From assembly GCA_046597055.1 (NCBI GenBank), contig JBKJLC010000037.1, positions 82,150 to 146,149 of the forward strand: 64,000 bases of DNA, read 5' to 3'. The notes below the pieces were generated by a model, which worked only from the letters and a program-made list of their open reading frames with translations, was not told where the DNA came from and did not search any database. Positions within the stretch are counted from its first letter, which is position 1, and each line of letters begins with the position of its first letter. A program made the translations under genes and the position numbers. This document shows positions 8,089 to 49,250 of the stretch, in pieces. Origin of the DNA: Kofleriaceae bacterium. GTDB lineage: Bacteria > Myxococcota_A > Polyangia > Haliangiales > Haliangiaceae.

Positions 8089-8111
8089 TTGATTCTCCTC
8101 TGCGACGACAT

Positions 8112-8127: not shown

Positions 8128-8157
8128 GCCCAGGGTAGCGCCGGAACCAGGTTTTGT

Positions 8158-8203: not shown

Positions 8204-8264
8204 ATGCCGGATCCCGTGAACGGGCCGGCGCGAGGATTCATTGAATGCATGGGATCCCACATGG

Positions 8265-8280
8265 CGGTACGAGTCGTGCA
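8265..8280 (+). promoter_or_regulatory. Sigma-54 promoter of the former norB-nnrS operon
   Basis: CGGTACGAGTCGTGCA (GG-N10-GC); ATG at 8293 lies 14 nt after the -12 C. Confidence 0.6.
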
Positions 8281-8292
8281 CTCCGGCACGGC

Positions 8293-8495
8293 ATGCGTCG
8301 TCTGTGGATCGCTCTTGCCGCCGTGCTGGTCGTGTGATTTGCCGTCCTGGGCTGGGTTGGCTCGCGGATCTACCAGCTGGCACCGTGTTCGCCGCCGGCG
8401 CCTTCGCGTTCGGGTTCGCGGTCGGACGCATGACCATGACCCGGGCCGCGGCGGTGCCCAAGGCCGACGTCGCCAAGACGCGCAAGCGGAGCTGA
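8293..8495 (+). pseudogene. norB: Deletion remnant of quinol-dependent nitric oxide reductase (qNor)
   Basis: MRRLWIALAAVLVV*FAVLGWVGSRIYQLAP (qNor-like N-terminus, internal TGA at 8335) joined out of frame to TVFAAGAFAFGFAVG...KRS* (qNor-like C-terminus); directly upstream of nnrS. Confidence 0.75.
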
Positions 8496-8503
8496 CCCGG
8501 CCG

Positions 8504-9757: not shown

Positions 9758-10405
9758 TCAGCGGGCCGCGGCGCCGCGGAGCACGAGCACGACCGCCGCG
9801 AAGTGACAGATCGCCGCGGCGATCACCAGGGCGTGGAAGACCTCGTGATATCCGAACACCCGCGGTGCGGGGTCGGGCCAGCGGAGCGCGTAGGTGAGGG
9901 CGCCCACCGTGTAGAGCACGCCGCCGGCGATGATCGCGGCGAGCGCCAGCGCGCCGGTCGTGGCGGCCACCACCGGCAGGTAGACGAGCACCGACCAGCC
10001 GAGCAGGACGTAGAGCGCGGCCGCGATCCAGCGCGGCGCGGTCGGCCACACCAGCGCCCGCATCGCCCCGAGGACCGCGCCGGTCCAGATCACGACGAGC
10101 AACCGCAGCCCATCGGTGCCGCCGATGCCGAGCGCGCACAGCGGCGTGTACGTGCCGGCGATGAACGTGAAGATGGTCGCGTGGTCCGCGCGTTGCCACC
10201 ACCGCCGTGCCGCCGGCCGCCAGCCGCCGCGGTGGTAGGAGGCGCTCACGCCGAACAGCGCCGCCAGCGTCACCGCGTACACCGCGACCGGCCAGCGGCC
10301 GGTGAGCGCCAGCAAGGCGGCCCCCGCGCCGAGGGCCACGAAGAACGCGAACTGGTGCGAGACCCCGCGGAGCCGGGGCGGTGCGCGCAGGATCTCGGTG
10401 CTCAT
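9758..10405 (-). CDS. Hemolysin III / PAQR family membrane protein
   Basis: PRLRGVSH, SASYH, RADHATIF..IAGTYTP, LGW, GGVLYTVGA, GYHEVFH. Confidence 0.9.
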   Translation of the reverse strand: MSTEILRAPPRLRGVSHQFAFFVALGAGAALLALTGRWPVAVYAVTLAALFGVSASYHRGGWRPAARRWWQRADHATIFTFIAGTYTPLCALGIGGTDGLRLLVVIWTGAVLGAMRALVWPTAPRWIAAALYVLLGWSVLVYLPVVAATTGALALAAIIAGGVLYTVGALTYALRWPDPAPRVFGYHEVFHALVIAAAICHFAAVVLVLRGAAAR

Positions 10406-10495
10406 GACCGCAGGGTGCGCCCGGGTCCGTCACGGTCGGGTCGGGCCTCGCTCACGATGTGCACAGGAGCCGTGGCCCGCCCGGCCGCCCCTGCG

Positions 10496-10741
10496 TCAGT
10501 CGAAGATCTCCCACCACGACCGGCGCTTGCCACCGGCGCGGCGGTCGTCGTCGCGGTCGTCGTCGTCGTCGCGCTGGGCGTCGCGGTGGTCGGGGCCCTC
10601 GGCCGGCGCCGCGCGGGCGATCAGCTTCTCGAGCTCGCCTCGATCGAGCCAGATGCCGCGGCAGCCGTCGCACCGGTCGATGGTGACCCCATCTCGCTCG
10701 ACCTCGGTCAGCTGCGAGGTTTCGCAACGGGGACAGGTCAT
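10496..10741 (-). CDS. zf-TFIIB-like zinc ribbon protein (81 aa)
   Basis: MTCPRC...IDRCDGCRGIWLDRGELEKL...SWWEIFD; AGGAG RBS. Confidence 0.85.
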   Translation of the reverse strand: MTCPRCETSQLTEVERDGVTIDRCDGCRGIWLDRGELEKLIARAAPAEGPDHRDAQRDDDDDRDDDRRAGGKRRSWWEIFD

Positions 10742-10960
10742 GGCTCGACTCCTGGATGGTTGATGAGAACGTTCGGTCGGCATCGGTCCCCAAGTTGACG
10801 CGTGGACGGCCCCGGGCAATGCGGAAGAGTCGAAGTGACGGCTCCGCTTTCTCGAACCGAGGGGGGCGTGGATGGTTTGGCGGAAGCGAAGCCTCGGCGC
10901 CGGATTTGGGCATCGACGTGCCGGCCGGGGCGCCCTATCGAGAGCAACCTGGAGGCCCCC

Positions 10961-12067
10961 ATGGAACTGCTCTATCTCGGGTTCATCGCGTTCATCCTGG
11001 CGCTGCTCGCGCTCGACCTCGGCGTCTTTCACCGGACCGCGCACGTCGTGCGGGTGAAAGAAGCGCTGGCCTGGTCGGCCGTGTGGATCTCGCTCGGGCT
11101 CGCCTTCGCCGGCTTCATCTACGCCGGCTACGAGCATCGATGGTTCGGGCTCGGCACCGGGACCGACACGATGGTGACGCCGACCGTGGGCGCCGACGGC
11201 GTGGTCGTCTACAACGACGGCGCCTCCGCCACGATCAAGTACCTCACCGGCTACCTCGTCGAGAAATCGCTCGCGGTCGACAACATCTTCGTCATCGCGA
11301 TGATCTTCGGCTTCTTCGGCGTGCCGGCCATGTACCAGCACCGGGTGCTGTTCTGGGGCATCGCGGGCGCGCTGCTCATGCGCGGCGCCATGATCGCGGT
11401 CGGCGCGGCGCTGATCGTGCGCTTCTCCTGGATCGTCTACGTGTTCGGCGGGTTCCTGGTGCTGACCGGCGTGAAGATGCTGCTGCTGCGCGGCGCGGCC
11501 GCGGACCTCGACCAGAACCCGGTCGTGCGCCTGGTGCGGCGCCTGCTTCCGGTGACCGAGCGCTACCACGGCGAGAAGTTCGTGGTCCGGGCCGGCTCCG
11601 CCGCCAGCCGGGCCCCTGCCACCCCAGGTGCGCCGGTCGAGCGCGATCGCGTGGTCGAGGCCGCCCGCACCGGCGCGCTGCTGGTGACGCCGCTGTTCCT
11701 CGCCCTCGTGCTGGTCGAGCTCACCGATGTGATCTTCGCGGTCGACTCGATCCCGGCGATCTTCGCGATCACGACCGACCCGTTCCTGGTCTTCACCAGC
11801 AACGTCTTCGCGATCCTGGGCCTGCGCAGCCTGTACTTCGCGCTGGCCGGCGCGATCGACTCGTTCCGGTACCTCAAGGCCGCGCTCGCGTTCGTCCTGA
11901 TCGTGATCGGCGTCAAGATGCTGACCCACGCGTGGCTCAAGGCGTGGCTCGGCGCGAGCTTCAACTTCTACGTGCTCGGCGTCGTCGGCGGGATCATCGC
12001 GATCGGCGTCGTCGCCTCGCTGGTGGCGCGTCGAAGGATGGTCGGCGCTGGCTCGGTGGTGCCGTGA
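10961..12067 (+). CDS. TerC/Alx family membrane protein
   Basis: LALDLGVFH, GYLVEKSLAVDNIFV, QHRVLFWG, ELTDVIFAVDSIPAI, SNVFAILGLRSLYF; GGAGG RBS. Confidence 0.92.
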   Translation: MELLYLGFIAFILALLALDLGVFHRTAHVVRVKEALAWSAVWISLGLAFAGFIYAGYEHRWFGLGTGTDTMVTPTVGADGVVVYNDGASATIKYLTGYLVEKSLAVDNIFVIAMIFGFFGVPAMYQHRVLFWGIAGALLMRGAMIAVGAALIVRFSWIVYVFGGFLVLTGVKMLLLRGAAADLDQNPVVRLVRRLLPVTERYHGEKFVVRAGSAASRAPATPGAPVERDRVVEAARTGALLVTPLFLALVLVELTDVIFAVDSIPAIFAITTDPFLVFTSNVFAILGLRSLYFALAGAIDSFRYLKAALAFVLIVIGVKMLTHAWLKAWLGASFNFYVLGVVGGIIAIGVVASLVARRRMVGAGSVVP

Positions 12068-12078
12068 CGCCGGCGCCG

Positions 12079-12993
12079 TCAGCGTGGCGCGAGTCGAGCG
12101 AACAGGTCGCCGCGGGCCGCATCGCGGATCGCGAGCACCGCCGGGTGGACCAGGCGGCGCTCGGCGGAGATCGCGTAGAAGCGTTCCTTGACGGCCTCGA
12201 CCCGGCCCACCGGGACCAGGTCGTAGCGGGTCCGCACCACGTCGATCACGACGGTCGGGACGAACACCATCCCCATCCCGTCGGCCGCGAACGCCTTGAG
12301 CAAGGCGCTGTCCTCCGCCTCGGCCAGGATGCGCGGCCTCACCCCGATCGAGGCGAACCATGCGTCGAGGTTGCGGCGCAACGCCGAGCCCTCGAGCGGC
12401 AGGAGCAGCGGTGCCCCCTCGAGCGACGCCGGAAAGTCGCGGCGGAACGTCCGGGCCAGGCCCACCGGGCCGACCAGCGTCACGTCGCAGCCGCCGAGGA
12501 GATGATGGAAGGCCTTGATCGTGGACGCCGGCGGGACCGGGGCATCCGCGATCACCAGGTCGAGCGTGTGCGCCGCCAGCTCGACCAGCAGGCGGTCGAA
12601 GCGGTCCTCGCGACAGACCAGCGCGACGGCGGTCGGCCCTTCGAAGGCGGGCGCCAGGAGCGTGCGCACGAGCAGCTTGGGCACGACGTCCGAGATGCCG
12701 ACCACCAGCCGGCGCGGCCGGTCACCCGGTCGATCCCGCAGCACCTCCTGCAGCTCGCGGCCGAGCCCGAAGATCTCGTCGGCGTAGCGGTAGGTAACCC
12801 GGCCCATCTCGGTCAGCTCGAGGCGTCGGCCACGCTTCTGGAACAGCTCGAGCCCGAGCGCCTCTTCGAGCTTGCCGATCTGCCCGCTCAGGGTGGGGGC
12901 CGACAGGCGCAGGAGCTTGCCGGCCGGGGCCAGCCCACCTTCCCGAGCCACGACCCAGAAGTAGAGTAGATGGTGGTAGTTGAGCCATTCCAT
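12079..12993 (-). CDS. nhaR: LysR family transcriptional regulator, NhaR-like
   Basis: MEWLNYHHLLYFW, LSGQI..LE..LG..LF, YADEIF.LG, AEAEDSALLKAF, FYAISAERRLVHPA. Confidence 0.8.
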   Translation of the reverse strand: MEWLNYHHLLYFWVVAREGGLAPAGKLLRLSAPTLSGQIGKLEEALGLELFQKRGRRLELTEMGRVTYRYADEIFGLGRELQEVLRDRPGDRPRRLVVGISDVVPKLLVRTLLAPAFEGPTAVALVCREDRFDRLLVELAAHTLDLVIADAPVPPASTIKAFHHLLGGCDVTLVGPVGLARTFRRDFPASLEGAPLLLPLEGSALRRNLDAWFASIGVRPRILAEAEDSALLKAFAADGMGMVFVPTVVIDVVRTRYDLVPVGRVEAVKERFYAISAERRLVHPAVLAIRDAARGDLFARLAPR

Positions 12994-13024
12994 GGGTCGG
13001 TCGCGCACCCTAGCGCACCCGGCC

Positions 13025-13894
13025 TCATGGCGAGGTACCGGTCCGGGCCCACACGGCGACGTGATCGCGAATGTAGTCCGCGACGGTTCGCGGCGGGTGG
13101 CCGAGCAGGCGGGCCAGCGTCGGATCGATGCGCCGCTCGTCGGCACGACGGAGTTCGGTATGGAGGACGGTCTGGACCAGGGCCTGCTTCCACGGCAGGT
13201 CGCGCCGCTTGCGGAGGTGGCGCAGGTAGCCGACGATGCTCGCGGGTTGGTACGTGATGGCTCGTCCAAGATGGAGCGTCAGGAGCGCGGCCACCTCGGC
13301 GAAGCTGGCGACGGCCGCCCCCGTCAGCGTGTAGCCGGCGCCGGCGTGCGGCGCCGGGTTGGCGAACACGTCGGCCGCGACGGTCGCGATGTCACGGACA
13401 TCGACCCAGGCAACCCGGCCGCGGCCACACGGGACATGGAGCCGGTCGTCCTCACGGATGTCCCGGCGGTACGCGTCGCCCAGGTTCTGCGCGAAGAAGC
13501 CTGGGCGGAGGAACGTCCACGCCGTGGTCGTGGCGCGCAGGTGGCGCTCGGTCGCGTGGTGGGGCACCAGCGGATTGCGGGCAGCGCCGGCGACGGACAG
13601 GAAGACGATCTGCGTGTGGCCGGCCGCGATGGCCGCGTCGATCAGGGGATGGAGGGTCTCGGCGACGTCCGCGATGGCGGGTGGCCGGAGCAGGAACATC
13701 GCATCGCAGCCCGCGACCGCCGCCGGATAGGTCGTCGGCTTCCGCAAGTCGAGGACGGTCCGGTCAGGCGCGTGGACCTCGATCCCGCGTGTCTCGAGCG
13801 CGCGTGCGACCTGACGACCCACGTTGCCGCTCGCGCCGACGATCAGGACGCGGCGCGCGGGTCGTGAGGTGCGGAGCTCGGCGGTCGGTGGCAT
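13025..13894 (-). CDS. NmrA-family NAD(P)-binding protein
   Basis: GASGNVG Rossmann motif; FLSVAGA; PHHATE; LRPGFFAQN; WVDVRDIA. Confidence 0.85.
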   Translation of the reverse strand: MPPTAELRTSRPARRVLIVGASGNVGRQVARALETRGIEVHAPDRTVLDLRKPTTYPAAVAGCDAMFLLRPPAIADVAETLHPLIDAAIAAGHTQIVFLSVAGAARNPLVPHHATERHLRATTTAWTFLRPGFFAQNLGDAYRRDIREDDRLHVPCGRGRVAWVDVRDIATVAADVFANPAPHAGAGYTLTGAAVASFAEVAALLTLHLGRAITYQPASIVGYLRHLRKRRDLPWKQALVQTVLHTELRRADERRIDPTLARLLGHPPRTVADYIRDHVAVWARTGTSP

Positions 13895-13988
13895 GGGCAG
13901 GATGCAGGGGCAGGGTGTGATGGAGTCGCCTGGACCTGGCGCGGGCGCCGAGATGCTACCTCGGCTCGACCCCTGGCCCGGGCGACGG

Positions 13989-16900
13989 TCATGCCGGGGG
14001 AGACGCGGCGGTGGCCGGCGGCAGCGTGCGGTGGCGCTGCCGGAGGCGCAGCTGGATCGCCCGCGCGGTCACGTAGAGGGTCGGCACGATCAGCAAGGTC
14101 ATCAGCAGCAGCGTCACCAGGCCGCCGATCATCGGTGAGGCGATCCGCTGGGTGACGTCGGCGCCGGCGCCGCTCGACAGCATGATCGGCGCCAGGCCGA
14201 CCAGGTTCATGCCCACGGTCATGAGCATCGGACGCACCCGCAGGACCGCGCCCTCGAGCGCACACGCGACCAGGTCCGGGACCGTGCGGATGGCCCCGGC
14301 GGCGAGCGCGCGCCGGTAGGCTTGCTCGAGATACACGACCATCATGGAGGCCGTCTCGGCGGCGATCCCGATCAGCGCGATCATCCCGACCCACACGGCG
14401 ATGCTGGTGTTGAAGTCGAGGACATAGAGCAGCCAGAAGCTGCCGACCACCGCGAACGGCGCCGAGGTCATGACGAGGAACGACAGCCCGATCGAGCGAA
14501 ACTGGAAGTACAGGAGGCCCATCACGAGCAGCAGCGTGATCGGGATGAGGATCCGCATGCGGCGCTCGACGCGCTCGAGGAGCTCGAACTGACCCGTCCA
14601 CTGCAGCCGGTAACCGGCCGGCAGGGGCAGGTCGGCGACGGCCTGCTTGGCCCGGGCGACGTAGCCGCCGAGGTCGTCGTCGCTGGTATCGATGAACACG
14701 TAGCCGACCAGCGAGCCATTCTCGTCCTTGATCATCGCGGGCCCGGCCCGCACGGTGAACGTGCCGAGCTGCGCCATCGGCACCTGACCTGAAGCGGCGC
14801 CCCGCGCACCTGGCGAACTGGCTGCCATCCCGGTCATGCCGTCGGCCGGCGCGGTCCCGGCCGCGCCGGTGCGGACCGGCACCAGCACGCGCGCGAGCGT
14901 GTCGAGGCTGCCGCGCAGGTCGCGGGCATAGCGCACGTTGACGGTGAACCGCTGGCGACCCTCGACCGTCTGGTCGATCACCATCCCACCGATCGCGGTC
15001 TCGACCATCGCCAGCACGTCCTGGACCCGGAGCCCGTACCGCGCGATCGCGCGCCGGTCGGGGGCGAAGTCCAGGTAGGTGCCCTGGGTCTCGCGGTCGG
15101 CGTAGACGCTGCGGGTGCCCGGCACGTCGCGCAGCCGCCGCTCGATCTCCAGCCCGACCCGCTCGATCTGGGCGAGGTCGTCGCCGAAGACCTTGATGCC
15201 GACCGGGGTCCGGATGCCGGTGGTCAGCATGTCGATGCGTGCCCTGATCGGCATCGTCAGCGCACCCTGGATGCCCGGCAGGTCGAGCGCGGCCACGAGC
15301 TCGCGCTCGAGCCGGGCGCGGGTCATCCCGGCTCGCCAGCGCGCGCGGGGATGGAGCACGATCACCGTCTCGAACATCGACAGGGGCGCCGGATCCGTGG
15401 CGGTGTCGGCGCGCCCGGCCTTGCCCATCACCGAGCGCACCTCGGGAAACTCGGCCAGGACCTGGTCCTGCCGCTGCAACAGGTCCCGGGCCTGCTCGAT
15501 CGAGATGTTGGGGAACGTCACGGGCATGTAGAGGAAGGCGCCCTCGTCGAGCGGCGGCATGAACTCGGCGCCGATCCGTCGCGCCGGCCAGAGCGCCGAG
15601 GCGACCAGGGCGACCGCGACCAGGAGCACCGCGAGCCGGAACCGCAGACAGCACCGGAGGACCGGCCGGTACAGCGCGATCGCCAGCCGGTTGATCGGGT
15701 TGGCCCGCTCGGGTCGGATCCGGCCGCGGATGCACAGCACCATCAGCGCCGGCACGATCGTGACCGACAGGATCGCGGCCGCGGTCATCGCGAACGTCTT
15801 GGTGTACGCGAGCGGGGAGAACAGCCGCCCCTCCTGGGCCTCGAGCGCGAACACCGGCAGGAACGCGACCGCGATGATCAGCAGCGATGCGAAGATCGGG
15901 CGAGCCAGCTCCCGGCAGGCCTCGATGATGAGCTCGGTGCGGCGGGCCGGCGCCGAGCCCTCGAGCCGGCGGTGGGCGTTCTCGATCAGCACCACGGTGG
16001 CGTCGACCATGTCGCCGACCGCGATGATGATCCCGCCGAGCGACATGATGTTGAGGCTGACGCCGGCGGCCCGGGTCGCGATGAACGCCGCCAGCACCGC
16101 GAGCGGCAGCGTCACGATCGCGACCAGCGCGCTGCGCACGTGGAGCAAGAACAGGCCGATGAACAGCAGGACGACGATCAGCTCCTCGGTGAGCGCGACC
16201 CCCAACGTGTCGATCGAGGCCCGGATCAGCTCCGAGCGGTCATAGGCGATCTCGACCTCGATCCCGGCCGGCATCGACGGCGCGATCTCGCGCAGGCGCT
16301 GCTTGACCCGGTCGGTCACCTCGAGCGCGTTCTCGCCGCTGCGCATCACGACGATGCCGCCGACCGCCTCGCCCTGGCCGTTCCATTCGAGCAGCCCGCG
16401 CCGGATCTCGGGCCCGATCTCGACCCGGGCGACGTTGCCGATCCGGACCGGCGTCCCGTCGTCGCCGACCTTGACCACCGCCTCTTCGAGATCCTCCTTG
16501 CGCTTCACGTAGCCGAGCCCGCGGAAGACGTACTCACGGCCGGCCCACTCGAGGACCCGGCCCCCGACGTCACCGTTGCTGGCGCGGGCGGCGTCGATCA
16601 CGTCGGCGACCGCCACGCCGAACGAGGCGAGGCGAGCCGGGTCGACCACGATCTGGTACTGCTTCTCGAAGCCGCCGACCGACGCGACCTCGGCGACCCC
16701 GGGCACGCTGGCCAGCGCGTAGCGCAGGTTGAAGTCCTGGAACGCCCGCAGCTCCTGCAGGTCGTGTTGCCCGGTCCGGTCGACCAGCACGTACTGGAAG
16801 ATCCAGCCCGACCCGGTCGCGTCGGGGCCCAGGGTCGGGACCACGCCGGGCGGCAGCTTGCCGGCCGCGTTGGCGAGGTACTCGAGCGTGCGCGAGCGCG

Positions 16901-39780: not shown

Positions 39781-40647
39781 ATGTCCGAACGCGACGCTAC
39801 CCCGCTGCCTGCCGAAGTCTTTCAGCTCCTCGTCGAGCAGAGCGGTGACGGGATCATCGTCGCGGACGAGAATGGCGTCATCCGGGTCTTCAACCCGGAG
39901 GCCGAGCGACAGCATGGGGTTGCCCGCCGTCAGGTCGCGGCACCTGATTGGGCCGATACGTTTGGGCTCTATAGCCTGGACGGCGCCAAGCTTGCCTTGG
40001 CCGAGACGCCGCTGTACCGGGCGGTCCACGGAGAAGTCGTCAGGGGCGCGCGGTGGGCCGTGAAGCTGCCGAGCGGCGCCATGCGCACGCTGAGCGGGAC
40101 GGCGACGCCGCTCCGCCACGCCGATGGCCGCGCCGCGGGCGCGCTGCTCATCACGCGCGACGAGACCGAGCGGATCGACCTCGAGCGGCAGCGGCAGACG
40201 CTCGCCGAGGTCGTCGAGCAGAGCCGCGACTTCATCGGGATCGCAACGCCGCAAGGGGTTCCGTTCTATGTCAACTCGGCCGGCCGACGCCTGGTCGGAC
40301 TCGACCACGAGCCCCTGGACGCACTCACGGTGGCCGACTTCTTCGGGCCGGCAGAGTACGAGCGCGTGGCGCACGCGATGACGTCCCTGGACCACAGCGC
40401 CCGCACTCACTTCCGGCATTTTCGAACCGGCGCGCTCATCCCGGTCTGTTGGCACGTGTTTCCGATCCGTGACGAGCACGGCGCGGTCACGGCGATCGCG
40501 ACCGTGACCCGCGACCTCACGACCGAGGAAGCGCTGGCCGTGGAGCTCGCCGCCCAGCAGCGCGACGTGGTCGCGATGCTGCAGCGGCTGCTCGACGAGC
40601 GGCAGCAGCTCGAGCGGCGCATCGCGGAGCTCGAGGGACGCGCGTGA
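39781..40647 (+). CDS. Tandem PAS-domain protein with C-terminal coiled coil
   Basis: SGDGIIVAD..FNPEAE; SRDFIGIA..YVNSAG; ATVTRDLT; no output domain. Confidence 0.8.
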   Translation: MSERDATPLPAEVFQLLVEQSGDGIIVADENGVIRVFNPEAERQHGVARRQVAAPDWADTFGLYSLDGAKLALAETPLYRAVHGEVVRGARWAVKLPSGAMRTLSGTATPLRHADGRAAGALLITRDETERIDLERQRQTLAEVVEQSRDFIGIATPQGVPFYVNSAGRRLVGLDHEPLDALTVADFFGPAEYERVAHAMTSLDHSARTHFRHFRTGALIPVCWHVFPIRDEHGAVTAIATVTRDLTTEEALAVELAAQQRDVVAMLQRLLDERQQLERRIAELEGRA

Positions 40648-40904
40648 GCGAGCTGCACACGTCGACGGTGCAACGCATGCATCGCGTCCTGGGCGCGGAC
40701 CGTGCCGACAGACTGCTGCGCGATGGCCTCGCCGCGATCGGGTGCGATCAGCTCGAGACGGCTGACGACCTGTACCGGTTCGCGCTGTGGCTCGGCACGA
40801 GCACTGGCTTCGAACAAGCCCTCGGCAGCCTGCTCGCCGTGCAGGCCGTCATGCGCGGCGCCGGACGGAAAGTCACGGATCCGGACGACGCGGCAGGACG
40901 CTAG
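40644..40904 (+). CDS. Small hypothetical protein (86 aa)
   Basis: GTGA overlap with the PAS gene; coding-like codon usage. Confidence 0.65.
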   Translation: MSELHTSTVQRMHRVLGADRADRLLRDGLAAIGCDQLETADDLYRFALWLGTSTGFEQALGSLLAVQAVMRGAGRKVTDPDDAAGR

Positions 40905-41640
40905 CCTCGCCGCGAGTCGTCGGAGCTCCGGTCGAGCCGCCGCGCGCCAGCTGGCGGGACCGGCCGTAGACGAGGGCGACGTAGAGGACGTCGAAGCAGA
41001 GGATGCCAGCGTAGAGCGTGAGGAGCAGCGGCGCGATCGGGTGGTAGGCCGCGGGGAGCAGCGCGTCCCAGTGCTCGTGGAGCGTCGGCGGCGACCAGAA
41101 CAGGGCGAGCACGAACGCGAAGAAGCTGCCGAGCAGCTTGGCGACGCCGATGGACACCGACTGGCCGCGCAGGCTGTCGCGGCGCAGGAACATGCACACG
41201 AACAGGATGGACATCATCAGGTTCTGGCCGAACGCGGCGTACCAGCCGATCGCGTCGTCGAGCTGGCGCACGAACGAGCCCAGGACGGCGAAGGCGAAGA
41301 CGATGATGCCGGTCAGGCCCAGGTGGAAGTAGCGGACCACGAACGGGTGCGAGAAGTCGGCGCGTCCGTAGCGGAAGCACTGCACCAGGATGCCGAGATC
41401 GAGCAGCGTCCACGGCAGCAGCATGGCGAGCCGCGCGTCGTAGACGCCATGGTGGAGCGTGACGCCGAGGAAGATCAGCTCCCAGGACAGGTTCGCGGCC
41501 AGGGCGACCAGCGGCATGCCATAGGCGCGATCGCGCGCCGCCTGGCGGAGAATGAGCACGTAGGTCAGGGTCCAGAACAGGCTGCTCAGCCCGCCGACGA
41601 GCAGTCCGAGCGTGTGATTGGCGTTGATGGCCGTGACCAT
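40873..41640 (-). CDS. Integral membrane terpene cyclase, Pyr4/PaxB/XiaE-like
   Basis: About 255 aa, multi-TM; W...Y..I.R....D..YGMPLVALAANLSWE, RGQS, KLLGS, C-terminal FDVLY. Confidence 0.8.
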   Translation of the reverse strand: MVTAINANHTLGLLVGGLSSLFWTLTYVLILRQAARDRAYGMPLVALAANLSWELIFLGVTLHHGVYDARLAMLLPWTLLDLGILVQCFRYGRADFSHPFVVRYFHLGLTGIIVFAFAVLGSFVRQLDDAIGWYAAFGQNLMMSILFVCMFLRRDSLRGQSVSIGVAKLLGSFFAFVLALFWSPPTLHEHWDALLPAAYHPIAPLLLTLYAGILCFDVLYVALVYGRSRQLARGGSTGAPTTRGEASVLPRRPDP

Positions 41641-41645
41641 GGGGC

Positions 41646-42680
41646 TCACGGCAGCCGGGGCGGCGTGGTCGGGGCGGTCGCGTGCAGGGCGACGTAGGGT
41701 TCGCCCGGGATGACCTTCTTGAACCTGACGTCGGTGAAGCCGGCCTCGCCCAGCTGGACCCGCAGCTCGGCCTCGGTCGGCAGCGGGCCCATCGCCGGTG
41801 TGCTGCTGGTCCACAGGTTGAGCACCCGCATCCCGGGCGAGCCGCCCTGGCACGAGGTCGTGAGGATCAGCCGGCCGCCGGGCACCAGCCGCGCGGCCAG
41901 CATGCGCAGGAACGGCACGCGCTCGGCCGTGGCCAGGTAGTAGATGACGTTGTAGAGCGTGACGACGTCGAAGCGCGCCGCGCTCGCCAGGGCGCGCACG
42001 TCACCGGTCTCGATCTGCACGCGGTCGTGCAGGCCCCAGCGCGCGATGGCGACGCGGCTGCTGGCGGCCACCTCCGGCTGCAGCTCGACCCCGACCGCCC
42101 GCAGCGCCGGGTTGCGACCGGCCGCGTACCGCAGGTAGGTCCCGGTGCCGCAGCCGACCTCGAGCAGGTGGATCGGGCCCGACGGCAGGGCCCAGTCGAT
42201 CGCCTGGAAGACGAACGGCTCCATGATGCGCGAGGAGCGGGCGATCAGCGCGCCGTCGTGCTCGCTTGGTTCCCACCGGCGCCGGGCGCGCAGGCGGGTC
42301 GGGGTCTCGACGATGAGCCGGTGGTGGAAGGTGGCGACCTCCTCGACCAGCGCGGCGATCTCGTCGTTGTCGACCTCGGCGAGGCGGCGCACCAGGTAGC
42401 CCCGGAGCCGATAGCCGTGGCGGTCGAGGCCGAGCTCGCCGAGACCCACGCCGAGGTCAAGCCACGCAGCCAGCGAGGCGCGACCGCCGTCGCCGGGCGC
42501 CAGCTCCGCGGCCAGCGCGTCGAGCGACCGTGGGCCCGCTGCGAGCAGCCCGAGCAGGCCGCTGCGGACCGCGGCGGCGGCGAAGCTGAGCCGGTAGAAC
42601 GGGGTGAACAGCTGGGTGACGTGCCACAGCAGGCGCAGTCGACCGCCGCGAACCAGGGCGAGCGCGGTCTTGCCGTTCAT
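41646..42680 (-). CDS. Class I SAM-dependent methyltransferase with N-terminal dimerisation-type region
   Basis: LLEVGCGTG, GVELQ, GDVR, FDVVTLYNVIYY, LVPGGRL. Confidence 0.88.
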   Translation of the reverse strand: MNGKTALALVRGGRLRLLWHVTQLFTPFYRLSFAAAAVRSGLLGLLAAGPRSLDALAAELAPGDGGRASLAAWLDLGVGLGELGLDRHGYRLRGYLVRRLAEVDNDEIAALVEEVATFHHRLIVETPTRLRARRRWEPSEHDGALIARSSRIMEPFVFQAIDWALPSGPIHLLEVGCGTGTYLRYAAGRNPALRAVGVELQPEVAASSRVAIARWGLHDRVQIETGDVRALASAARFDVVTLYNVIYYLATAERVPFLRMLAARLVPGGRLILTTSCQGGSPGMRVLNLWTSSTPAMGPLPTEAELRVQLGEAGFTDVRFKKVIPGEPYVALHATAPTTPPRLP

Positions 42681-44038
42681 CAGGCCGACCTCAGGCGATC
42701 GGCCGCGGCCGCGGACCACCGGGCCACGAACCCGTCGCCGGTGGTCACCGCCGCCAGGTCGAGGCCCCCGAGCTCGCCGAGCCGCCGCAAGAAGGGCCGG
42801 AACAGCTCGCCGTGAAAGGCGGCGCCGAGCGCGGCCTCGTCGTACACGGCGAGCACCCGCAGGCCGCCGCGGAAGGTCGAGAACACCAGCATGATCTCCG
42901 CCGGCGCGAACAGCTGGGGGAAGGTCACGTAGTCGACGACCGCCGTGTCGCCGAAGCAGGGCAGGCGCGACGGACAGACGCCGGGATTGGTGAGCATGAC
43001 GTTGCTCTTGAACAGCGCGGGCCACAGGCCGGCGAACCAGCGCTGCGGGAGCCACCGGCCGAACCCGGCGAACAGATCGTCGAAGCGCGCGGCGTGGCTG
43101 TAGATGTCGCCGTCACGCAGCCGCTCGATGGTCGCGGCGCAGCGGGTCAGCACCTCGTCGTCGGTCCAGGCGGCGTCGAGCTCGACCGGGTACACCAGCG
43201 CCAGACAGTCGTAGCGGGGTGCCTGGTCGCCCCGGAGCGGCCGCACCGAGAAAAAATCCCACAGGCGCAGGCGCGCGCGCGCGACCCCGCGGCGGCGGTT
43301 GAAGTCGGTCGCGGTGCGCAGGAACGCCAGCTGGAAGAAGGCGTGGATCGAGCAGCCGCGGCGGCGGGCCGCCTGCCGGAGCTGGTCGGTCTCGGCCGGC
43401 GTGAGCGTGACGCGGGCCAGCTGGCGTCGGCCCGGCGCGGCGCGCCGCGGCGTGGCCAGGCCGCCGAACGGGGCGCGTAGATCGCGCGCGGTCTGCGCGA
43501 CGCCGCGCGCGTGCGCCGCCAGCGCGTGGCGCCATCCGCGTGACCCTCGGTCGGGGCCCGGGGTGGCCGGGCTGGCCACCGACGCCAGCCCGGGGCCCGG
43601 TGCGCCCGGGGTCGCCCCGCGCCCACCATAGCTGGCAGCGATCTGCTCGGTCAGCAGATAGCAGGCGGTCGCGTCGGCGTGGACGTGGGTGTGGATCGTC
43701 TGGAAGTAGGTCTGGCCCGGCGTCTCGGTGACGTGGAACCGGACCGGCGCCGCGTCGGGCGCGAGCCGCTCGCTCCAGATGAGGCCGAGCAGGTGGTCGT
43801 CGACCCGCGCCGCGTCGTCGTCGGGCAGCGCGTGGAAGCGCAGCTGGAACGGCTGGCCGCGCAGGACCGGATGGCGGGCCAGGGTCGCGGTGATCGCCGC
43901 CCGCAGGCGGTCGTGGCCGAGCTTGCCAGCGAGGACGACGACGTCGCACGAGTTGGGGTTGACCACGGACCCGAGCGCCTCGAACAGCCAGTTGAGGGCG
44001 TGGGGCCGATGGTGGGTTGCGAGCGACGACAGGCGCAC
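42680..44038 (-). CDS. Condensation-domain/PapA5-like CoA-dependent acyltransferase
   Basis: LRAAI...LARHPVLR, HVHAD (HxxxD), L.QAARRRGCSI, LTNPG. Confidence 0.65.
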   Translation of the reverse strand: MRLSSLATHHRPHALNWLFEALGSVVNPNSCDVVVLAGKLGHDRLRAAITATLARHPVLRGQPFQLRFHALPDDDAARVDDHLLGLIWSERLAPDAAPVRFHVTETPGQTYFQTIHTHVHADATACYLLTEQIAASYGGRGATPGAPGPGLASVASPATPGPDRGSRGWRHALAAHARGVAQTARDLRAPFGGLATPRRAAPGRRQLARVTLTPAETDQLRQAARRRGCSIHAFFQLAFLRTATDFNRRRGVARARLRLWDFFSVRPLRGDQAPRYDCLALVYPVELDAAWTDDEVLTRCAATIERLRDGDIYSHAARFDDLFAGFGRWLPQRWFAGLWPALFKSNVMLTNPGVCPSRLPCFGDTAVVDYVTFPQLFAPAEIMLVFSTFRGGLRVLAVYDEAALGAAFHGELFRPFLRRLGELGGLDLAAVTTGDGFVARWSAAAADRLRSA

Positions 44039-44041
44039 GGG

Positions 44042-44980
44042 TCACCGATCCAGCAGGAGATTGGCGAGCACGAGCGCGACGATGCCCGTGCGGATCACCA
44101 GGAAGCCGAGCCGGCGGGCCTGCAACCAGCGCCGCTGGCCCAGGCCGCACCACAGCTGGTAGCCCTGGAGCGCCCAGACTGGTGTCAGCGCGAGCAGGTA
44201 GCCGCGCGGCAGGAGGCCGGTTGCCAGCGCGACGAGCCCGACCGCCGCCGACGCGACGAACACGGCGAGGATGTAGCGACGGTTGCCGCGCTCGCTGGTC
44301 CGCGCCGCGATCGTCAGGCGCGCGGTCGCGCGGTCGCCGGCGGCGTCGTGGGTGTTCGAGAAGACCACGACCTGGGCGTGCCAGGCGCCGACCAGCGCGG
44401 CCTCGACCAGCAGGATTCCGCTCGGCTGGTGGGCGACCAGCGCGTAGGGAATCAGCACGGTCCCGGCGGCGCCGACCCAGATCACCAGCTCGCCGGCGCC
44501 GTGGTAGCTCAGCTTCAGGCCGTACGAGTAGTTGACCGCCAGGAGCATCATCGCCGGCATGGCGATCAGCAGCCAGGTCGGCAGCGGCCAGGCCAGCACC
44601 ATCACGGCCGCGTAGGCCAGCGCGGCGACGACGCCGAGCAGATGGACGAAGCGAAACGCATGCTCCTCCGAGAGCTGACCGGTGAGGATCGGCTTGCGGA
44701 CGCCCCAGCGAGCGTCGCCCTGGTGGGTGGCCTGGTCGACCCCGTCGCGCACGCCGACGATGTCGTCGAGGCTGCAGGTCGCCGCGATCACCGCCACGCC
44801 GACCACCAGGATCGCCGCGAGGATCGTGAGCGCGCGCGCATCCTGGGTCGCCGCGGCGCCGAGCAGCGACACGCCCACGAAGAACCCGAGCCACAGCTCG
44901 ACGATCCGGAGCTTGCCCAGCTCGAACCAGGCGCGCACCCGCTCGGCGGGCCCGCGCGTCCTCGGGGCGACCGCGGCCAT
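44042..44980 (-). CDS. UbiA-family aromatic prenyltransferase
   Basis: DDIVGVRDGVD, RKP, YSYGLKLSY.GAGE, NTHDAAGD; multi-TM. Confidence 0.85.
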   Translation of the reverse strand: MAAVAPRTRGPAERVRAWFELGKLRIVELWLGFFVGVSLLGAAATQDARALTILAAILVVGVAVIAATCSLDDIVGVRDGVDQATHQGDARWGVRKPILTGQLSEEHAFRFVHLLGVVAALAYAAVMVLAWPLPTWLLIAMPAMMLLAVNYSYGLKLSYHGAGELVIWVGAAGTVLIPYALVAHQPSGILLVEAALVGAWHAQVVVFSNTHDAAGDRATARLTIAARTSERGNRRYILAVFVASAAVGLVALATGLLPRGYLLALTPVWALQGYQLWCGLGQRRWLQARRLGFLVIRTGIVALVLANLLLDR

Positions 44981-46110
44981 CAGGCGGGGTTCGGCCGGGT
45001 GTGGGCCACCGGGCGCAGCGCCTCGGCCACGAAGCGGTCGACCAGCGCGCGCAGCGCCGGCTCCTGGGCCAGGACCGGCGAGCGCTCGATGCCCATCAGC
45101 AGGTCGTCGATCCGCTGCCAGACCGCGGCCAGCGCGCCGTCGGCCGCGAACCGGGCGATCACGTCCTCGATCGCGTCGCGCGCGGTCTCGGCCCGCGGTG
45201 CGGTCAGGATGCCGAGCAGCCAGGCGCGGTCGTCGGGGTGTAGCCGCAGGTGCTCGACCACGAACGCGGTCGCCTTGCCGCTCTGCGCCAGGTCGGAGCC
45301 CTTCATCTCGCGGCCGTTGTCGCCATAGAGGTCGAGGATGTCGTCCTGGATCTGGAACAGCAGCCCGAGCGGGCGGAACGACGCCGCCAGCAGCGCCGCC
45401 GGCTCGGGCGAGCGCCCGGCGATCAGCGCCGCTCCCTCGATCGGCAACGAGAACAGCGCGGTGGTCTTGCCCTCCACGCAGGCCGCGTAGGCCTCCCAGG
45501 TGAGGGTGCCCGACGACAGGAGCTGGAGCTCGGCGGCCTGGCCCTCGACCACCCGTCGCGCGGCCAGCGACACCAGCTGGGTGAGACGCCAGCGCAGGCC
45601 GTCGCTGACCGGGACCGCGCCGATCGCCAGGTAGCTGAGGACGATCGACAGGTCACCGGCGTTGATCGCCTGGGCGACGCCGTGGCGGGCCCACAGCGCG
45701 GGGCGACCGCGCCGGTAGCGATCGCCATCCTGGATGTCGTCGTGGATCAGCGAGGCGTTGTGGAGGAGCTCGCAGCAGGCCCCCCACGGCACGCCGTCTT
45801 CCATCCGTCCGCCGAGCGCGTTGACCGCGAACAGCGCCAGCCGCGCGCGCAGGCGCTTGCCGCCCGCCGCGATGTGCGCCCAGACCAGGCCGCCGAGGGC
45901 TTGCTCGCGCTCGGCGAAGCACAGCCGATGCATCAGGCGTTCGATGCTGGCGACGTGGCTCGGGTCGCCCCAGAGCTCGGCGAGCGGGGCCGGCCGGGGC
46001 GGCGCAGGTGCGGGCGACGCCGGTGGGTTCGGCACGCGCGCCGTGCCTGCAGCGGCACGAGTCGGCTCACAGACGGGGCGCTCGGCGACTCGCAGTGGCT
46101 TGTACGACAT
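44980..46110 (-). CDS. Polyprenyl diphosphate synthase (FPP/GGPP)
   Basis: GGKRLR, ELLHNASLIHDDIQD..RRGRP, AINAGD, GQ, KT, FQIQDDILD, GK. Confidence 0.93.
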   Translation of the reverse strand: MSYKPLRVAERPVCEPTRAAAGTARVPNPPASPAPAPPRPAPLAELWGDPSHVASIERLMHRLCFAEREQALGGLVWAHIAAGGKRLRARLALFAVNALGGRMEDGVPWGACCELLHNASLIHDDIQDGDRYRRGRPALWARHGVAQAINAGDLSIVLSYLAIGAVPVSDGLRWRLTQLVSLAARRVVEGQAAELQLLSSGTLTWEAYAACVEGKTTALFSLPIEGAALIAGRSPEPAALLAASFRPLGLLFQIQDDILDLYGDNGREMKGSDLAQSGKATAFVVEHLRLHPDDRAWLLGILTAPRAETARDAIEDVIARFAADGALAAVWQRIDDLLMGIERSPVLAQEPALRALVDRFVAEALRPVAHTRPNPA

Positions 46111-46193
46111 TGGTTGGTGACTGACCTCGACACGAACCGCGTAGTGGCGTGATAGCCATTCTCGGTGCAGTTCGTGATGTGGGTCTGGTCCCA

Positions 46194-46221
46194 ACCATAG
46201 GGGACTGGAACGGGTTGTCAA
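46194..46221 (-). promoter_or_regulatory. Sigma-70-type promoter of the terpenoid operon
   Basis: TTGACA-N16-TATGGT in a locally AT-richer intergenic region. Confidence 0.65.
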
Positions 46222-46477
46222 CCTGGCCAAGGTGGCGAGGACATTGCGGTTTGGCCGCCAGCCTCAGCTATTCTCGGTGCGTCATTTCCGCTCGCACTGG
46301 AACCGGTAAGTAGCCGTAATGATTTGTTAGTCGGTGTCGGTGTGGCAAGCGCGCACGCACCGCCTGACCGCAAATCGTCAATTGCGGGCTTTCTTCGACA
46401 AGGGACAACTCGAGTTCACTGACTGTTCGTTGTGGCGAAACAGTCAATTTCGGCCGCGGTTGCTCGCGGGTCGCTTT

Positions 46478-47365
46478 TCATGGACTGCCGCCGTGGCTGC
46501 TCACTGTGGCCGGCGCGGGCCCGCGCGGCACGAGCCACATCACGTTGCGGTGCATGTTCACGATCACGTCGAAGTGCTGGAGGGTGGCGCCGCCCAGGAT
46601 GCCGTCCCGACGGTCGTCGCGCGCGCCCCGGTACCGGCCGAACGCCACGTCACGCAGGACCAGGTCGCCGAGCGTCACCGCGTCGGCCGACCAGATCCCC
46701 CGCCGCGATTCGCGCAGGCCCGCGGTCGCGGCCAGCCGTGGGTGGAGGAACGACCCCATCTCGGGACCGAAGGCCACCACCAGCGTCGCCGGCTTGCCGT
46801 TGACGATGACCCGGGCATGAAAGTGTGAGCCAACCGGCTCGAGCTCGACCCGGTGCGCGTTCGCTGGCAGCGGCTGGTGGCCCTGCGTCGCCAGCGTGAG
46901 GGTCCCGGCGGCCTGACGCAGGTCCCAGATCAAGGTGTCGTCGAGAACGTCGCGTCCGATCGTGCCCGCGATGATCCCGCCGTGGTCGTGGACCACGAAC
47001 TTCCGGGCCTTGACCGTGAGGTCGCCGATCGACAGCTTCGGGACCTCGGCCAGGTACGGGATCGTCTTGCCGACGTCCCGGGAGTCGAGGACGCGCAGGT
47101 CCACCTTCTCCAGGTAGAGGCCGAGCTCCTTCGCGACCGCGAGCGAGATGCTCGACGCGTCGGAGTCCGGGCTCAGGAAGAACCGATAGGGGCCCCGGCC
47201 CAGGAGGTAGACCTCGGCCACCAGCGGCGAGCCCGGCGGGGTCGGCTGCAGCGGGATCGTCCAGCGATCGCCCGCGCTGAAGCCGGGCGGGCGGCCCATG
47301 GCGCACGCCTGCAGGACGACGAAGGCCAGGGCGGCGAGCGCGAGACGAGGAGCTGTCGTGGTCAC
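46478..47365 (-). CDS. Retropepsin-like (aspartyl protease fold) lipoprotein, degenerate
   Basis: LQAC lipobox; two lobes ending GTIGRDVL and DGILGG; DTG sites replaced (FFLSPDS, LVVAFG). Confidence 0.6.
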   Translation of the reverse strand: MTTTAPRLALAALAFVVLQACAMGRPPGFSAGDRWTIPLQPTPPGSPLVAEVYLLGRGPYRFFLSPDSDASSISLAVAKELGLYLEKVDLRVLDSRDVGKTIPYLAEVPKLSIGDLTVKARKFVVHDHGGIIAGTIGRDVLDDTLIWDLRQAAGTLTLATQGHQPLPANAHRVELEPVGSHFHARVIVNGKPATLVVAFGPEMGSFLHPRLAATAGLRESRRGIWSADAVTLGDLVLRDVAFGRYRGARDDRRDGILGGATLQHFDVIVNMHRNVMWLVPRGPAPATVSSHGGSP

Positions 47366-47422
47366 GGCGGGCGCTGTCGGCGCGCCGGTCCCGCGGTTGC
47401 GCGTCCGCCGCAGTTTGCCGGT

Positions 47423-49060
47423 CTACAGATCTTCGGCGATGATCTTCTCGATGTTGCGCTCGGCCAGGGCCGACACGGTGAAGGCCGGGTTCGCGCAGCC
47501 GGTGAAGCCGGGGATCAGCGCGCTGTCGTTCACGTAGAGTCGGTCGTAGTTCTTCACGCGACCGTAGAAGTCGCAGGCCTTGCCGAGCACCGCGCCGCCC
47601 AGCGGGTGATAGACGGAGTCGTCGCGGTAGCCCTTGGGGCCGCCGATCAGCCAGCTCGTGGTGCCGCCGTTGGCGCGGTTGAGCCGCTGCATCGTGTGCA
47701 TCATGGCGCGGTTGACCGTGTGCTGGTCGTTGAAGAACCGCGGCCACTGCAGCGAGACCTCGTCCGTCCAGCGGTCGTACTCGAACTGGCCGCGGGTCTT
47801 GTGGATGCCCATGCCGAAGTAGAGCAAGTAGTGCAGGTCGAGCCCGAGGGGCAGCTGCGGGTGCTCGATGTACAGCGGCGCGATCGGGTTGTCGTAGTCC
47901 TTGATCGCGGACGCCGGCGGCCCACCCTGCCACTGACCGGTCGACTCGGGGATGAGCGTCCGCAGCGCGTAGACGTTGCCGTTGTTGCCCCAGCCCTTGC
48001 CGACCTGGTCGTTGAGGTCCGGCAGCATGCCCGTCGCCTTGGCGCGGACCAGCAGCTTGCTGGTGCCGATCGATCCCGCCGACAGGATCAGGTACTTGCA
48101 GCTGTACGTCTCGTGCTCCTCGACGTTCCCGCGCTCGTCGATGCGCTCGACGAAGACCAGGTAGTTGCCGTCGTCGCCCCGGGCGATGTCGGTGACCTGG
48201 CGCAGGGTGCGCGCCTCGAACAGCCCGGTGGCCTCGGCGTCCGCCAGGTAGTTCGTGTCGAGCGTCTTCTTCGCGCCGCTCTCCACGCCGTAGATCGCCT
48301 CGCCGTGGATGACCGACGGCGCGACGGTGCCGGCGATCTCCTGGCGGACGATGTCCCAGTCGGTGCCCGACCGGATGCGGTCGACCTCGATGCCGGCCTT
48401 CTGGCAGTGCTGCTCCATGACCCGGTAGTGCGTGTGGTAGTCCGAGGCCAGCACGTCGGCGGGGATCGCGCTGATGCCGACCTTGGCGTCGACCCGCTGG
48501 TAGTAGCGGCCCATGTCGTCGTACGACACCTCGGCCGGGAACACCTGCTCGAAGAGGTGCTTCGGCGGTTTGACGTACAGGCCGCCGTAGACGATCGACC
48601 CGCCGCCGTAGGCCGCGCCGGTGAGCACCTTCAGGTTGCCGAAGTCGTGGCCCTCGAGCACGCCGGTGTATCGCCGGATCGGCAGCGCGGGCCCGAGCGG
48701 CACCACCGTCTTGCGGTTGAGCCAGGTGCTGCGTCCGTCCGGGTAGATGTAGGGCGAGAAGGTGTCGACGCCGGGCGTGCGGACCCAGCGCTTGCCCTTC
48801 TCGAGCATCAGCGTATCGATCCCGTGCTCGGTCAGGCGCAGCGCGCTGATCGCGCCGCCGAAGCCACTGCCGATCACGATGGCCTCGCGGACGATCGGCG
48901 TGGTGACGATGCCGAGATTCGAGGCGCGCGCCTTGCTCGCCCCCAGCAGGATCGGTCCGGCCGCTGCGGCCGCGCCGGCGACGCCGGCCAGCTTCAGCAG
49001 GTCACGCCGGCTGGGCGCGCGGGTCGGTGGGGAGTCGTCGCCGTCGTTCTGATCTGACAT
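47423..49060 (-). CDS. Tat-exported cholesterol oxidase-like GMC oxidoreductase
   Basis: Tat motif SRRDLLK; GSGFGG; GGGSIVYG; GAKKTLDTNYL; GWGNNG; YHPLGG; NPAFTVSALAERN. Confidence 0.85.
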   Translation of the reverse strand: MSDQNDGDDSPPTRAPSRRDLLKLAGVAGAAAAAGPILLGASKARASNLGIVTTPIVREAIVIGSGFGGAISALRLTEHGIDTLMLEKGKRWVRTPGVDTFSPYIYPDGRSTWLNRKTVVPLGPALPIRRYTGVLEGHDFGNLKVLTGAAYGGGSIVYGGLYVKPPKHLFEQVFPAEVSYDDMGRYYQRVDAKVGISAIPADVLASDYHTHYRVMEQHCQKAGIEVDRIRSGTDWDIVRQEIAGTVAPSVIHGEAIYGVESGAKKTLDTNYLADAEATGLFEARTLRQVTDIARGDDGNYLVFVERIDERGNVEEHETYSCKYLILSAGSIGTSKLLVRAKATGMLPDLNDQVGKGWGNNGNVYALRTLIPESTGQWQGGPPASAIKDYDNPIAPLYIEHPQLPLGLDLHYLLYFGMGIHKTRGQFEYDRWTDEVSLQWPRFFNDQHTVNRAMMHTMQRLNRANGGTTSWLIGGPKGYRDDSVYHPLGGAVLGKACDFYGRVKNYDRLYVNDSALIPGFTGCANPAFTVSALAERNIEKIIAEDL

Positions 49061-49250
49061 CGGGTCGCCATTCCTCGTTTGCTCGCGCGTCGCGACGCGC
49101 AGGTCTATCGAGGGCACTGGCTACCATGGAATTTTCGTGAGCTAGTCTCAGTCCGCGCGATTGCCATTACCGCTCGTGACATGGCCGTCTCGCGGTCGGC
49201 GAACCGCCTTCAACCTGAGGGCGTGCTGGCGAGCCAGCGCGCGGCCGCGG

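Follow-up and report, generated by a model that had tools for sequence, protein, structure and literature searches.

A candidate operon for cyclised prenyl conjugates built around a Pyr4-type membrane cyclase in a Myxococcota genome

We analysed a stretch of 64,000 nucleotides (hereafter, the window) from the genome of a Kofleriaceae bacterium (GCA_046597055.1, contig JBKJLC010000037.1, positions 82,150 to 146,149), in which a codon-position gene call and a list of open reading frames (ORFs) place five successive minus-strand genes within 40873-46110. Pfam matches identify them, in order of transcription, as genes for a prenyl diphosphate synthase, a UbiA prenyltransferase, a condensation-family protein, a methyltransferase, and a Pyr4-type cyclase (Table 1). 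We propose, at a probability of roughly 55%, that together they form a self-contained operon whose product is a cyclised, so far uncharacterised prenyl conjugate, i.e., a meroterpenoid. The operon is an uncharacterised variant of a known bacterial logic in which prenylation is followed by Pyr4-type cyclisation. The proposal builds on gene families, catalytic motifs, gene coupling, conserved gene order, and rarity, all of which were directly observed.

In the proposed pathway, the synthase would make an all-trans prenyl diphosphate, most likely C15-C20, and the divergent UbiA enzyme would move this chain onto a small acceptor already made by the cell. The TylF-related cyclase would then protonate the terminal double bond directly, with no prior epoxidation, and fold the chain into rings. 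The methyltransferase and the condensation-family enzyme would tailor the product of the five-gene version, and three-gene versions of the locus would give an untailored core. What we infer is the sequence of the steps, protonation of the alkene, how long the chain is, which acceptor is used, and how the product is tailored.

Operon organization and the Pyr4-type cyclase

The window has a G+C content of 72%; the metagenome-assembled genome (MAG) that contains it has 8.4 Mb (94% complete, 7.6% contamination), and the contig is 146 kb long. The stop codon of the synthase gene and the ATG of the UbiA gene overlap by one base (44980) in a TGATG arrangement, as do those of the condensation-like gene and the methyltransferase gene (42680). 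A gap of 3 nt precedes the GTG start of the condensation-like gene (44038), and 5 nt precede the cyclase ATG (41640), for which an alternative start would give a GTGA overlap at 41649. The sigma-70-like site upstream of the synthase gene is one of two promoter-like sites in 40300-47500 (7.2 kb), a region where shuffled sequences gave 0.2 +/- 0.5. Judged by these junctions, the five genes are a translationally coupled operon behind the sigma-70-like site. A preliminary description of the locus (40873-46221), made from the sequence alone, had named the same five gene families, the 1-nt overlaps and 3-5 nt gaps, and the same promoter, and all of these were borne out by the Pfam matches, the gene call, the junction sequences, and the consensus scan. 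Rfam and tRNA scans of the window returned no matches.

Table 1 Features of the operon, with coordinates in the window
Feature	Coordinates	Strand	Basis and remarks
Sigma-70-like promoter site, TTGACA-N16-TATGGT	46194..46221	-	Consensus scan, 10/12 positions; 84 nt 5' of the first ATG of the synthase gene
Trans-prenyl diphosphate synthase, 376 aa	44980..46110	-	PF00348; ATG at 46110, alternative GTG start at 46035
Divergent UbiA-superfamily prenyltransferase, 312 aa	44042..44980	-	PF01040
Stand-alone condensation-family protein, 452 aa	42680..44038	-	Sub-threshold PapA_C; H-T-H-x-x-A-D motif
Class I methyltransferase dependent on S-adenosylmethionine, 344 aa	41646..42680	-	Methyltransf_12/23/25/11, 44-58 bits
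Pyr4-type seven-helix membrane terpene cyclase (predicted), 255 aa, TylF-related	40873..41640	-	PF25129

The cyclase scored 91.5 bits against the Pyr4-TMTC family (PF25129; cut-off 27) over profile positions 24-218 of 227, and is the single member of this family in the genome. Its size fits the ~230-260 aa of the family, and its seven hydrophobic segments agree with seven long helices in an AlphaFold2 (AF2) model (predicted local distance difference test, pLDDT, 85.6). W56-E57 and D220 were kept in 120/120 aligned homologues, and E57 and D220 also in all 24 members of a smaller set. The family membership (Pyr4/XiaE) and the retained glutamate of the WE motif and C-terminal aspartate, as given in the preliminary description, are thus well founded. 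In DmtA1, E60 and D214 represent the acidic pair common to membrane cyclases, Pyr4 included, and are held to be catalytic; this enzyme protonates a C=C bond and not an epoxide, and depends on a further acidic residue, with D94/E133 as its extra acidic positions (PMC6173783). Two more acidic positions are conserved in the operon cyclase family, D84 (117/120, with glutamate in the other three) and D132 (108/120, with glutamate in five more).

The nearest characterised cyclase (36% identity, 151 bits) is encoded at the tolypodiol locus of strain HT-58-2; it has been named TylF and falls into the same similarity cluster as GroF (PMC13307353). A quick maximum-likelihood search over 44 rows, with support from the Shimodaira-Hasegawa-like approximate likelihood ratio test (SH-aLRT), recovered the 14 operon-type rows as a clade (99). 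Together with TylF, an Iningainema relative, and a cyclase from another genome of the same phylum (L089), they make up a group of 17 (86), and this group takes in every row with adjacent prenyl genes. The other 23 rows, without prenyl neighbours, form the sister group (88) and come from Hymenobacteraceae, Nitrososphaeria (ammonia-oxidising archaea), Methanoperedens, Chloroflexota, Bacillota, Kitasatospora, and others. No terpenoid neighbour genes were found at the eight annotated sister-group loci (L014, L022, L027, L046, L064, L067, L039, and L081). That the operon protein cyclises a prenyl chain is suggested by context, its gene being coupled to those for a synthase and a UbiA enzyme both in the window and at four related loci (L005, L006, L007, and L089).

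Comparison of the cyclase model with solved structures raises another reading, in which the Pyr4-like protein would serve as a carrier or accessory protein with seven membrane helices, and the operon would give a linear, methylated lipid of the prenylquinone type. The best matches were the KDEL receptor (Z 14.4; root-mean-square deviation, rmsd, 3.9; 191 aligned), AtSWEET13 (11.1), cystinosin (10.5 and 10.1), and rice SWEET (10.3); SemiSWEET aligned to helices 1-3. Unrelated structures appeared from Z 7.1 down, so the SWEET/PQ-loop/KDEL-receptor superfamily of seven-helix carriers and receptors supplies the only clear structural relatives, and most sequence homologues likewise lack a terpenoid context. 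No solved Pyr4-family structure surfaced in this comparison, and a literature search found no paper naming both Pyr4-type cyclases and this superfamily. A common fold does not give function, however, and E57 and D220, the pair held to be catalytic in Pyr4 and DmtA1, are kept in every one of the 120 homologues. The gene is also translationally coupled to pathway genes, and its nearest characterised relative by sequence belongs to a proven cyclase family (PMC13307353; PMC6173783 for the catalytic pair). We therefore regard a carrier role as very unlikely.

Prenyl chain, acceptor and tailoring proteins

The synthase scored 165.9 bits against Pfam polyprenyl_synt (PF00348; cut-off 27), and its first and second aspartate-rich motifs (FARM, HNASLIHDDIQD, with DDIQD; SARM, DDILD) are those of a trans-prenyl diphosphate synthase. 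Its top NCBIfam models were of short-chain types, every score being far under the cut-off, and its best solved relative was a geranylgeranyl diphosphate (GGPP) synthase (1wy0, 111.7 bits), ahead of octaprenyl synthases at ~86 bits. Alanine and serine stand at positions -5 and -4 before the first aspartate motif. Small residues at this place do not cap the prenyl chain, and an Ala/Ser-type pattern occurs in a long-chain synthase. Since the profile and structure-database scores favour short-chain relatives, the predicted product is most likely C15-C20, with a longer chain possible.

The UbiA enzyme scored 59.6 bits against PF01040 (cut-off 34.2). Both of its aspartate-rich motifs (D72 D73 G76 R78 D79 G80 D82, and D212 D216 R217) were invariant in 18/18 aligned relatives, so the enzyme should be active. 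Against the two MenA equivalog models it reached 33.2 and 27 bits (cut-offs 264 and 346), and NCBIfam gave no match to the 4-hydroxybenzoate model TIGR01474. The genome encodes six UbiA-family proteins, namely heme O synthase, MenA, a second MenA-like protein, a DPPR-synthase-like protein, an EboC-like protein, and the operon UbiA; its true MenA (316 bits) is on a different contig from the operon. In phmmer searches the operon UbiA matched none of the other five, nor the 4-hydroxybenzoate UbiA of the tolypodiol locus. Its phmmer relatives were actinobacterial proteins (33-40% identity), and a protein atlas search returned generic UbiA clusters only. By sequence, then, it is neither a MenA nor a 4-hydroxybenzoate enzyme and represents an uncharacterised UbiA branch.

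One of the relatives, from Kitasatospora (L100; G401:C1:670200-690199, ~6636-14557), lies beside genes for a methyltransferase, an AMP-ligase, an amine-oxidase-type flavoprotein, and two DegT aminotransferases. We recognised no known pathway in this cluster, and because it contains neither a synthase nor a cyclase gene, it gives no information on the acceptor of the operon UbiA. Another related protein (P0246) is a fusion of UbiA with an AMP-binding domain. The second MenA-like UbiA of the same genome (L084; G000:C182:58778-61486) is itself divergent, with 61.6 bits against the MenA cut-off of 264.

No acceptor-forming gene is present in the operon. Searches of the 94% complete genome found no chorismate lyase of either family (PF01947, PF04345), so 4-hydroxybenzoate is not an obvious acceptor; the cell could in principle supply 1,4-dihydroxy-2-naphthoate. 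Non-aromatic acceptors are within reach of bacterial UbiA enzymes (PlaT3), and so is a three-carbon keto acid (PMC11317874). The "prenyl-aromatic" product of the preliminary description is a guess, an aromatic acceptor being unproven. The UbiA enzyme could instead prenylate a small aliphatic metabolite or a polar head group, giving a ring-bearing membrane isoprenoid lipid or acid. The enzyme has no detectable likeness to MenA or 4-hydroxybenzoate enzymes, the genome yielded no chorismate lyase, and no aromatic-building gene occurs at any related locus, all of which would suit such an acceptor. However, the sole weak family signals of the UbiA enzyme are MenA-type (33 and 27 bits), and its first aspartate motif ends in G-x-D, like that of the genome's own MenA. 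A structural lipid is also a poorer fit than an accessory metabolite for an operon found in 2/401 sampled genomes of the phylum and not in a genome of the same genus. We consider this reading, a membrane lipid or acid on a non-aromatic acceptor, unlikely.

The conserved aspartate-rich motifs, both of the kind that ionises a prenyl diphosphate, and the lack of an encoded acceptor pathway could also be read as signs of an acceptor-free type I terpene synthase, whose pure terpenoid product would next undergo another cyclisation, methylation, and modification. Fungi and bacteria do have terpene synthases of the UbiA type. It would be unusual, however, for a protonation-type cyclase to follow a type I cyclase, and the enzymes characterised as partners of Pyr4-type cyclases are prenyltransferases (PMC13307353, PMC6173783), which makes this the least probable of the readings we considered.

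For the proposed prenyl conjugate, tailoring would fall to the third and fourth genes. The methyltransferase (58.1 bits against Methyltransf_12) has an N-terminal extension of ~170 aa, and its best solved relatives, with weak scores, were the 4-methylthio-2-hydroxybutyrate (MTHB) S-methyltransferase DsyB (44 bits) and then natural-product methyltransferases.

The third protein fell short of the cut-offs of Pfam PapA_C (25 bits; cut-off 30) and of an NCBIfam model (15.8 bits; cut-off 396), and 26 of the 27 members of its family matched PapA_C and seven matched Condensation at E<=0.01. Its H-T-H-x-x-A-D motif (H116, H118, D122) is invariant in all 27, with threonine in place of the first histidine of HHxxxDG and H118-x3-D122 kept. 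When the family profile was compared with solved structures, 8s6l ranked top (E 2.5e-7, with the histidine motif aligned), followed by condensation domains of nonribosomal peptide synthetases (NRPS) and PapA5. The AF2 model (pLDDT 79.8; predicted template modelling score, pTM, 0.84) matched the same structure in Foldseek (E 6.7e-21) and in VIA (Z 31.1, rmsd 3.6, 389 aligned, 21% identity); the next VIA row stood 4.6 lower (Z 26.5), and PapA5 (1q9j) ranked 33rd with Z 23.3. In all, 357 chains matched at Z >= 8, and each of the 50 listed was a condensation-family or related acyltransferase chain. Neighbours in the protein atlas carry the Condensation, PapA_C, and WS_DGAT families. On the predicted structure, the condensation-type two-lobed fold and the catalytic histidine are secure. 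Public protein data held 37 relatives, and by sequence this family is small and specific to this type of operon.

The structure 8s6l is AzeD, a dehydratase that acts on a free intermediate and founded a stand-alone clade in which the first histidine is often variable; its authors state that dehydratase activity of other members of this 'C_standalone' clade is not known (bioRxiv 10.64898/2026.07.17.738954). Both AzeD and the operon protein are free-standing, and both keep the second histidine and have lost the first (proline in AzeD, threonine here), whereas AzeD acts in an NRPS-derived azabicyclocarbamate pathway and the identity is just ~20%. PapA5 and acyltransferases of the wax synthase/diacylglycerol acyltransferase (WS/DGAT) type have the same two-lobed fold and histidine motif, but the operon protein stays under the Pfam and NCBIfam cut-offs. 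As no carrier protein, polyketide synthase (PKS), or acyl-activating gene is found near the third gene, the protein appears about as likely to transfer an acyl group from a common acyl-CoA as to perform acid/base chemistry like that of AzeD. The preliminary description had called this protein an HxxxD, PapA5-like acyltransferase. The condensation/PapA5 fold and the histidine motif stand, the acyltransferase label does not, and an "acylated" product is unsupported because AzeD is the closest solved relative in both profile and predicted fold.

The product may also be a squalene-independent polycyclic isoprenoid, in which a chain, possibly longer than C20, would be placed on a respiratory-quinone precursor or another primary metabolite and cyclised by protonation, with the AzeD-like enzyme acting on the free terpenoid. 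We hold this fuller version of the pathway to be quite unlikely. If true, acid/base catalysis (e.g., dehydration) on a free terpenoid would be a role not described for condensation-family enzymes.

Conservation and rarity of the gene order

A scan with a cyclase alignment, run over one genome per species, gave 220 relatives, of which 80 were kept. The seven closest of these (61-73% identity) are all titled as Myxococcota MAGs, under the names Kofleriaceae, Polyangiales, Polyangium, Myxococcales, and "Deltaproteobacteria bacterium". In tblastn comparisons, one locus (L005) had the complete five-gene order, with identities of 61% for the synthase, 66% for UbiA, 56% for the third protein, 60% for the methyltransferase, and 65% for the cyclase. 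A second (L007) had the same order, interrupted by the start of the contig, two others (L002 and L003) contained the three 3' genes, and L006 consisted of synthase, UbiA, and cyclase genes with nothing between them. At L089 (genome G121), the synthase (74%) and UbiA (73%) were followed by a cyclase just 41% identical, and no member of the third-gene family was found in that genome. L004 was uninformative, as its cyclase lies at a contig edge. Across L005, L006, L007, and L089, the synthase orthologues were 61-74% identical to that of the window. L008, a locus in a Myxococcales MAG, was uninformative too: of a close cyclase orthologue (73% identity) it keeps no more than 104 C-terminal residues (8001-8312), with no synthase or UbiA gene in the 8 kb upstream; this fragment may be a remnant.

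The gene order thus recurs across Myxococcota MAGs at about 55-74% identity, and its recurrence in independent MAG contigs makes it more than a chance arrangement. Because the flanking genes differ at every related locus, the unit is best described as a three-gene core with an optional two-gene tailoring pair. Within the phylum this unit is rare. A UbiA orthologue was found in 2/401 sampled genomes and a close cyclase orthologue in 1/401, and none of the latter was found in a genome of the same genus (G150). Synteny with that genome was limited to flanking housekeeping genes (74-77%), which lie there on different contigs, so that no clean insertion site could be defined. Public protein data held 57 cyclase sequences at 58-75% identity, nearly all of them metagenomic.

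On the same strand, at a distance of two genes upstream of the operon, is a gene for a GMC flavoprotein (47423-49117). It was rejected as a cluster member, as was an aspartyl-protease-like gene upstream, since neither is conserved beside the operon (the flavoprotein has no counterpart at L005).

Known pathways and the weight of the evidence

None of the epoxidase, cytochrome P450, PKS, NRPS, and cyclodipeptide synthase (CDPS) families was matched by the five operon proteins or the 48 other called ORFs of the window. The flanks of L005, L006, and L007 contained no epoxidase, and no oxygenase was conserved beside the operon. The flavin or P450 epoxidase that accompanies the cyclase in epoxide-dependent pathways (pyripyropene, paxilline, xiamycin type) was therefore not found. 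The preliminary description was right about these absences in the operon, but a missing epoxidase does not set the operon apart, since direct alkene protonation has been described for DmtA1 (PMC6173783), GroF (PMC12105684), and ZigF (PMC13307353).

Few bacterial pathways employ Pyr4-type cyclases; those named in a recent survey, mostly from actinomycetes, are for xiamycin, drimentine, tolypodiol, gromomycin, and zigralone, and the bacterial space of such cyclases was charted in 2026 as a network of 264 cyclases (PMC13307353). Given this survey, the earlier ranking of the operon as the strongest new-system candidate was overstated. Its being called undescribed agrees with our literature search, which found no characterised cluster matching the operon, the list of the 264 cyclases and their taxa in that survey lying outside the search.

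The tolypodiol pathway (tyl; Nostocales/Brasilonema HT-58-2) resembles the operon in its cyclase, TylF being the nearest characterised one and joining the operon clade in the tree, and its locus also contains a prenyl diphosphate synthase, a UbiA enzyme, and a methyltransferase. By contrast, the UbiA of the tyl locus belongs to the canonical 4-hydroxybenzoate enzymes (TIGR01474, 291 bits, over the cut-off) with an adjacent chorismate lyase, a pair that the operon lacks. At the phmmer level the two UbiA proteins are unrelated and the methyltransferases share no likeness, and the tyl synthase has another type of FARM. The tyl locus further contains genes of the methylerythritol phosphate (MEP) pathway and genes for a Rieske protein and a P450, and none of the condensation family.

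The drimentine (DmtA1-3) and xiamycin (XiaE/XiaH) cyclases of Streptomyces, compared by description and outside the alignment and tree, are likewise seven-helix membrane proteins with a conserved glutamate and aspartate, and DmtA1 works on a C=C bond without an epoxidase, with the help of extra acidic residues (PMC6173783). In drimentine biosynthesis, a phytoene-synthase-like protein is the prenyl donor enzyme and a CDPS provides the cyclodipeptide acceptor, whereas xiamycin formation uses an epoxide; the partner genes of both are absent here. Gromomycin (GroD/GroH/GroF) and zigralone (Zig) share with the operon the combination of a synthase, a prenyl-transferring enzyme, and a Pyr4-like cyclase, with terminal-alkene protonation proposed for GroF and ZigF (PMC12105684; PMC13307353). 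Gromomycin differs by its hexaprenyl diphosphate, guanidine acceptor, Rieske proteins, and P450, and zigralone by its need for a thiamine pyrophosphate (TPP) enzyme and five P450s; no stand-alone condensation-family protein features in the description of either cluster. The operon differs from each of these known examples in its UbiA branch, in having no acceptor or oxygenase gene, and in its stand-alone condensation-family enzyme.

Several points weigh against the proposed cyclised prenyl conjugate. Most prokaryotic PF25129 members lack terpenoid neighbours, so cyclase activity cannot be assumed across the family. Support for joining the operon clade to TylF is moderate (86, from the quick search), and D84 and D132 were matched to the DmtA1 type (D94/E133) by description. 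The tolypodiol cluster reportedly contains a gene for a UbiH-like flavoprotein (PMC8073705), so TylF itself may use an epoxide. The operon UbiA is unlike every characterised aromatic prenyltransferase with which it was compared, its actinobacterial relatives occur in a different gene context, and the missing chorismate lyase removes an obvious aromatic acceptor. Finally, the 15 sequencing runs listed for the operon stretch include no RNA run, and the three with most of the stretch are soil metagenome DNA and may be where it was assembled from.

At the place reported for the UbiH-like gene in our record of the tolypodiol locus (L011, 708-1374), we found a pair of short ORFs that overlap in different frames and give no more than a weak FAD/NAD Rossmann signal; this record may contain the gene in split form. 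Elsewhere in the window (5525-8088), the gene for a histidine kinase with a protoglobin domain adjoins that for a sigma-54-dependent response regulator, and an NnrS gene lies on the opposite strand (8504-9757); this region may be a gas- or nitric oxide-sensing module.

The operon overturns no current view and makes a reasonable, not revolutionary, natural-product target. At 5.3 kb and with no outside genes evidently needed, it is suited to synthesis and heterologous expression. To the known bacterial pathways with Pyr4-type cyclases, it would add an uncultured soil Myxococcota lineage, an uncharacterised UbiA branch, and a terpenoid context for a stand-alone condensation-family enzyme. If the acceptor is a primary metabolite, the core would be a minimal three-gene route to ring-bearing prenyl conjugates.

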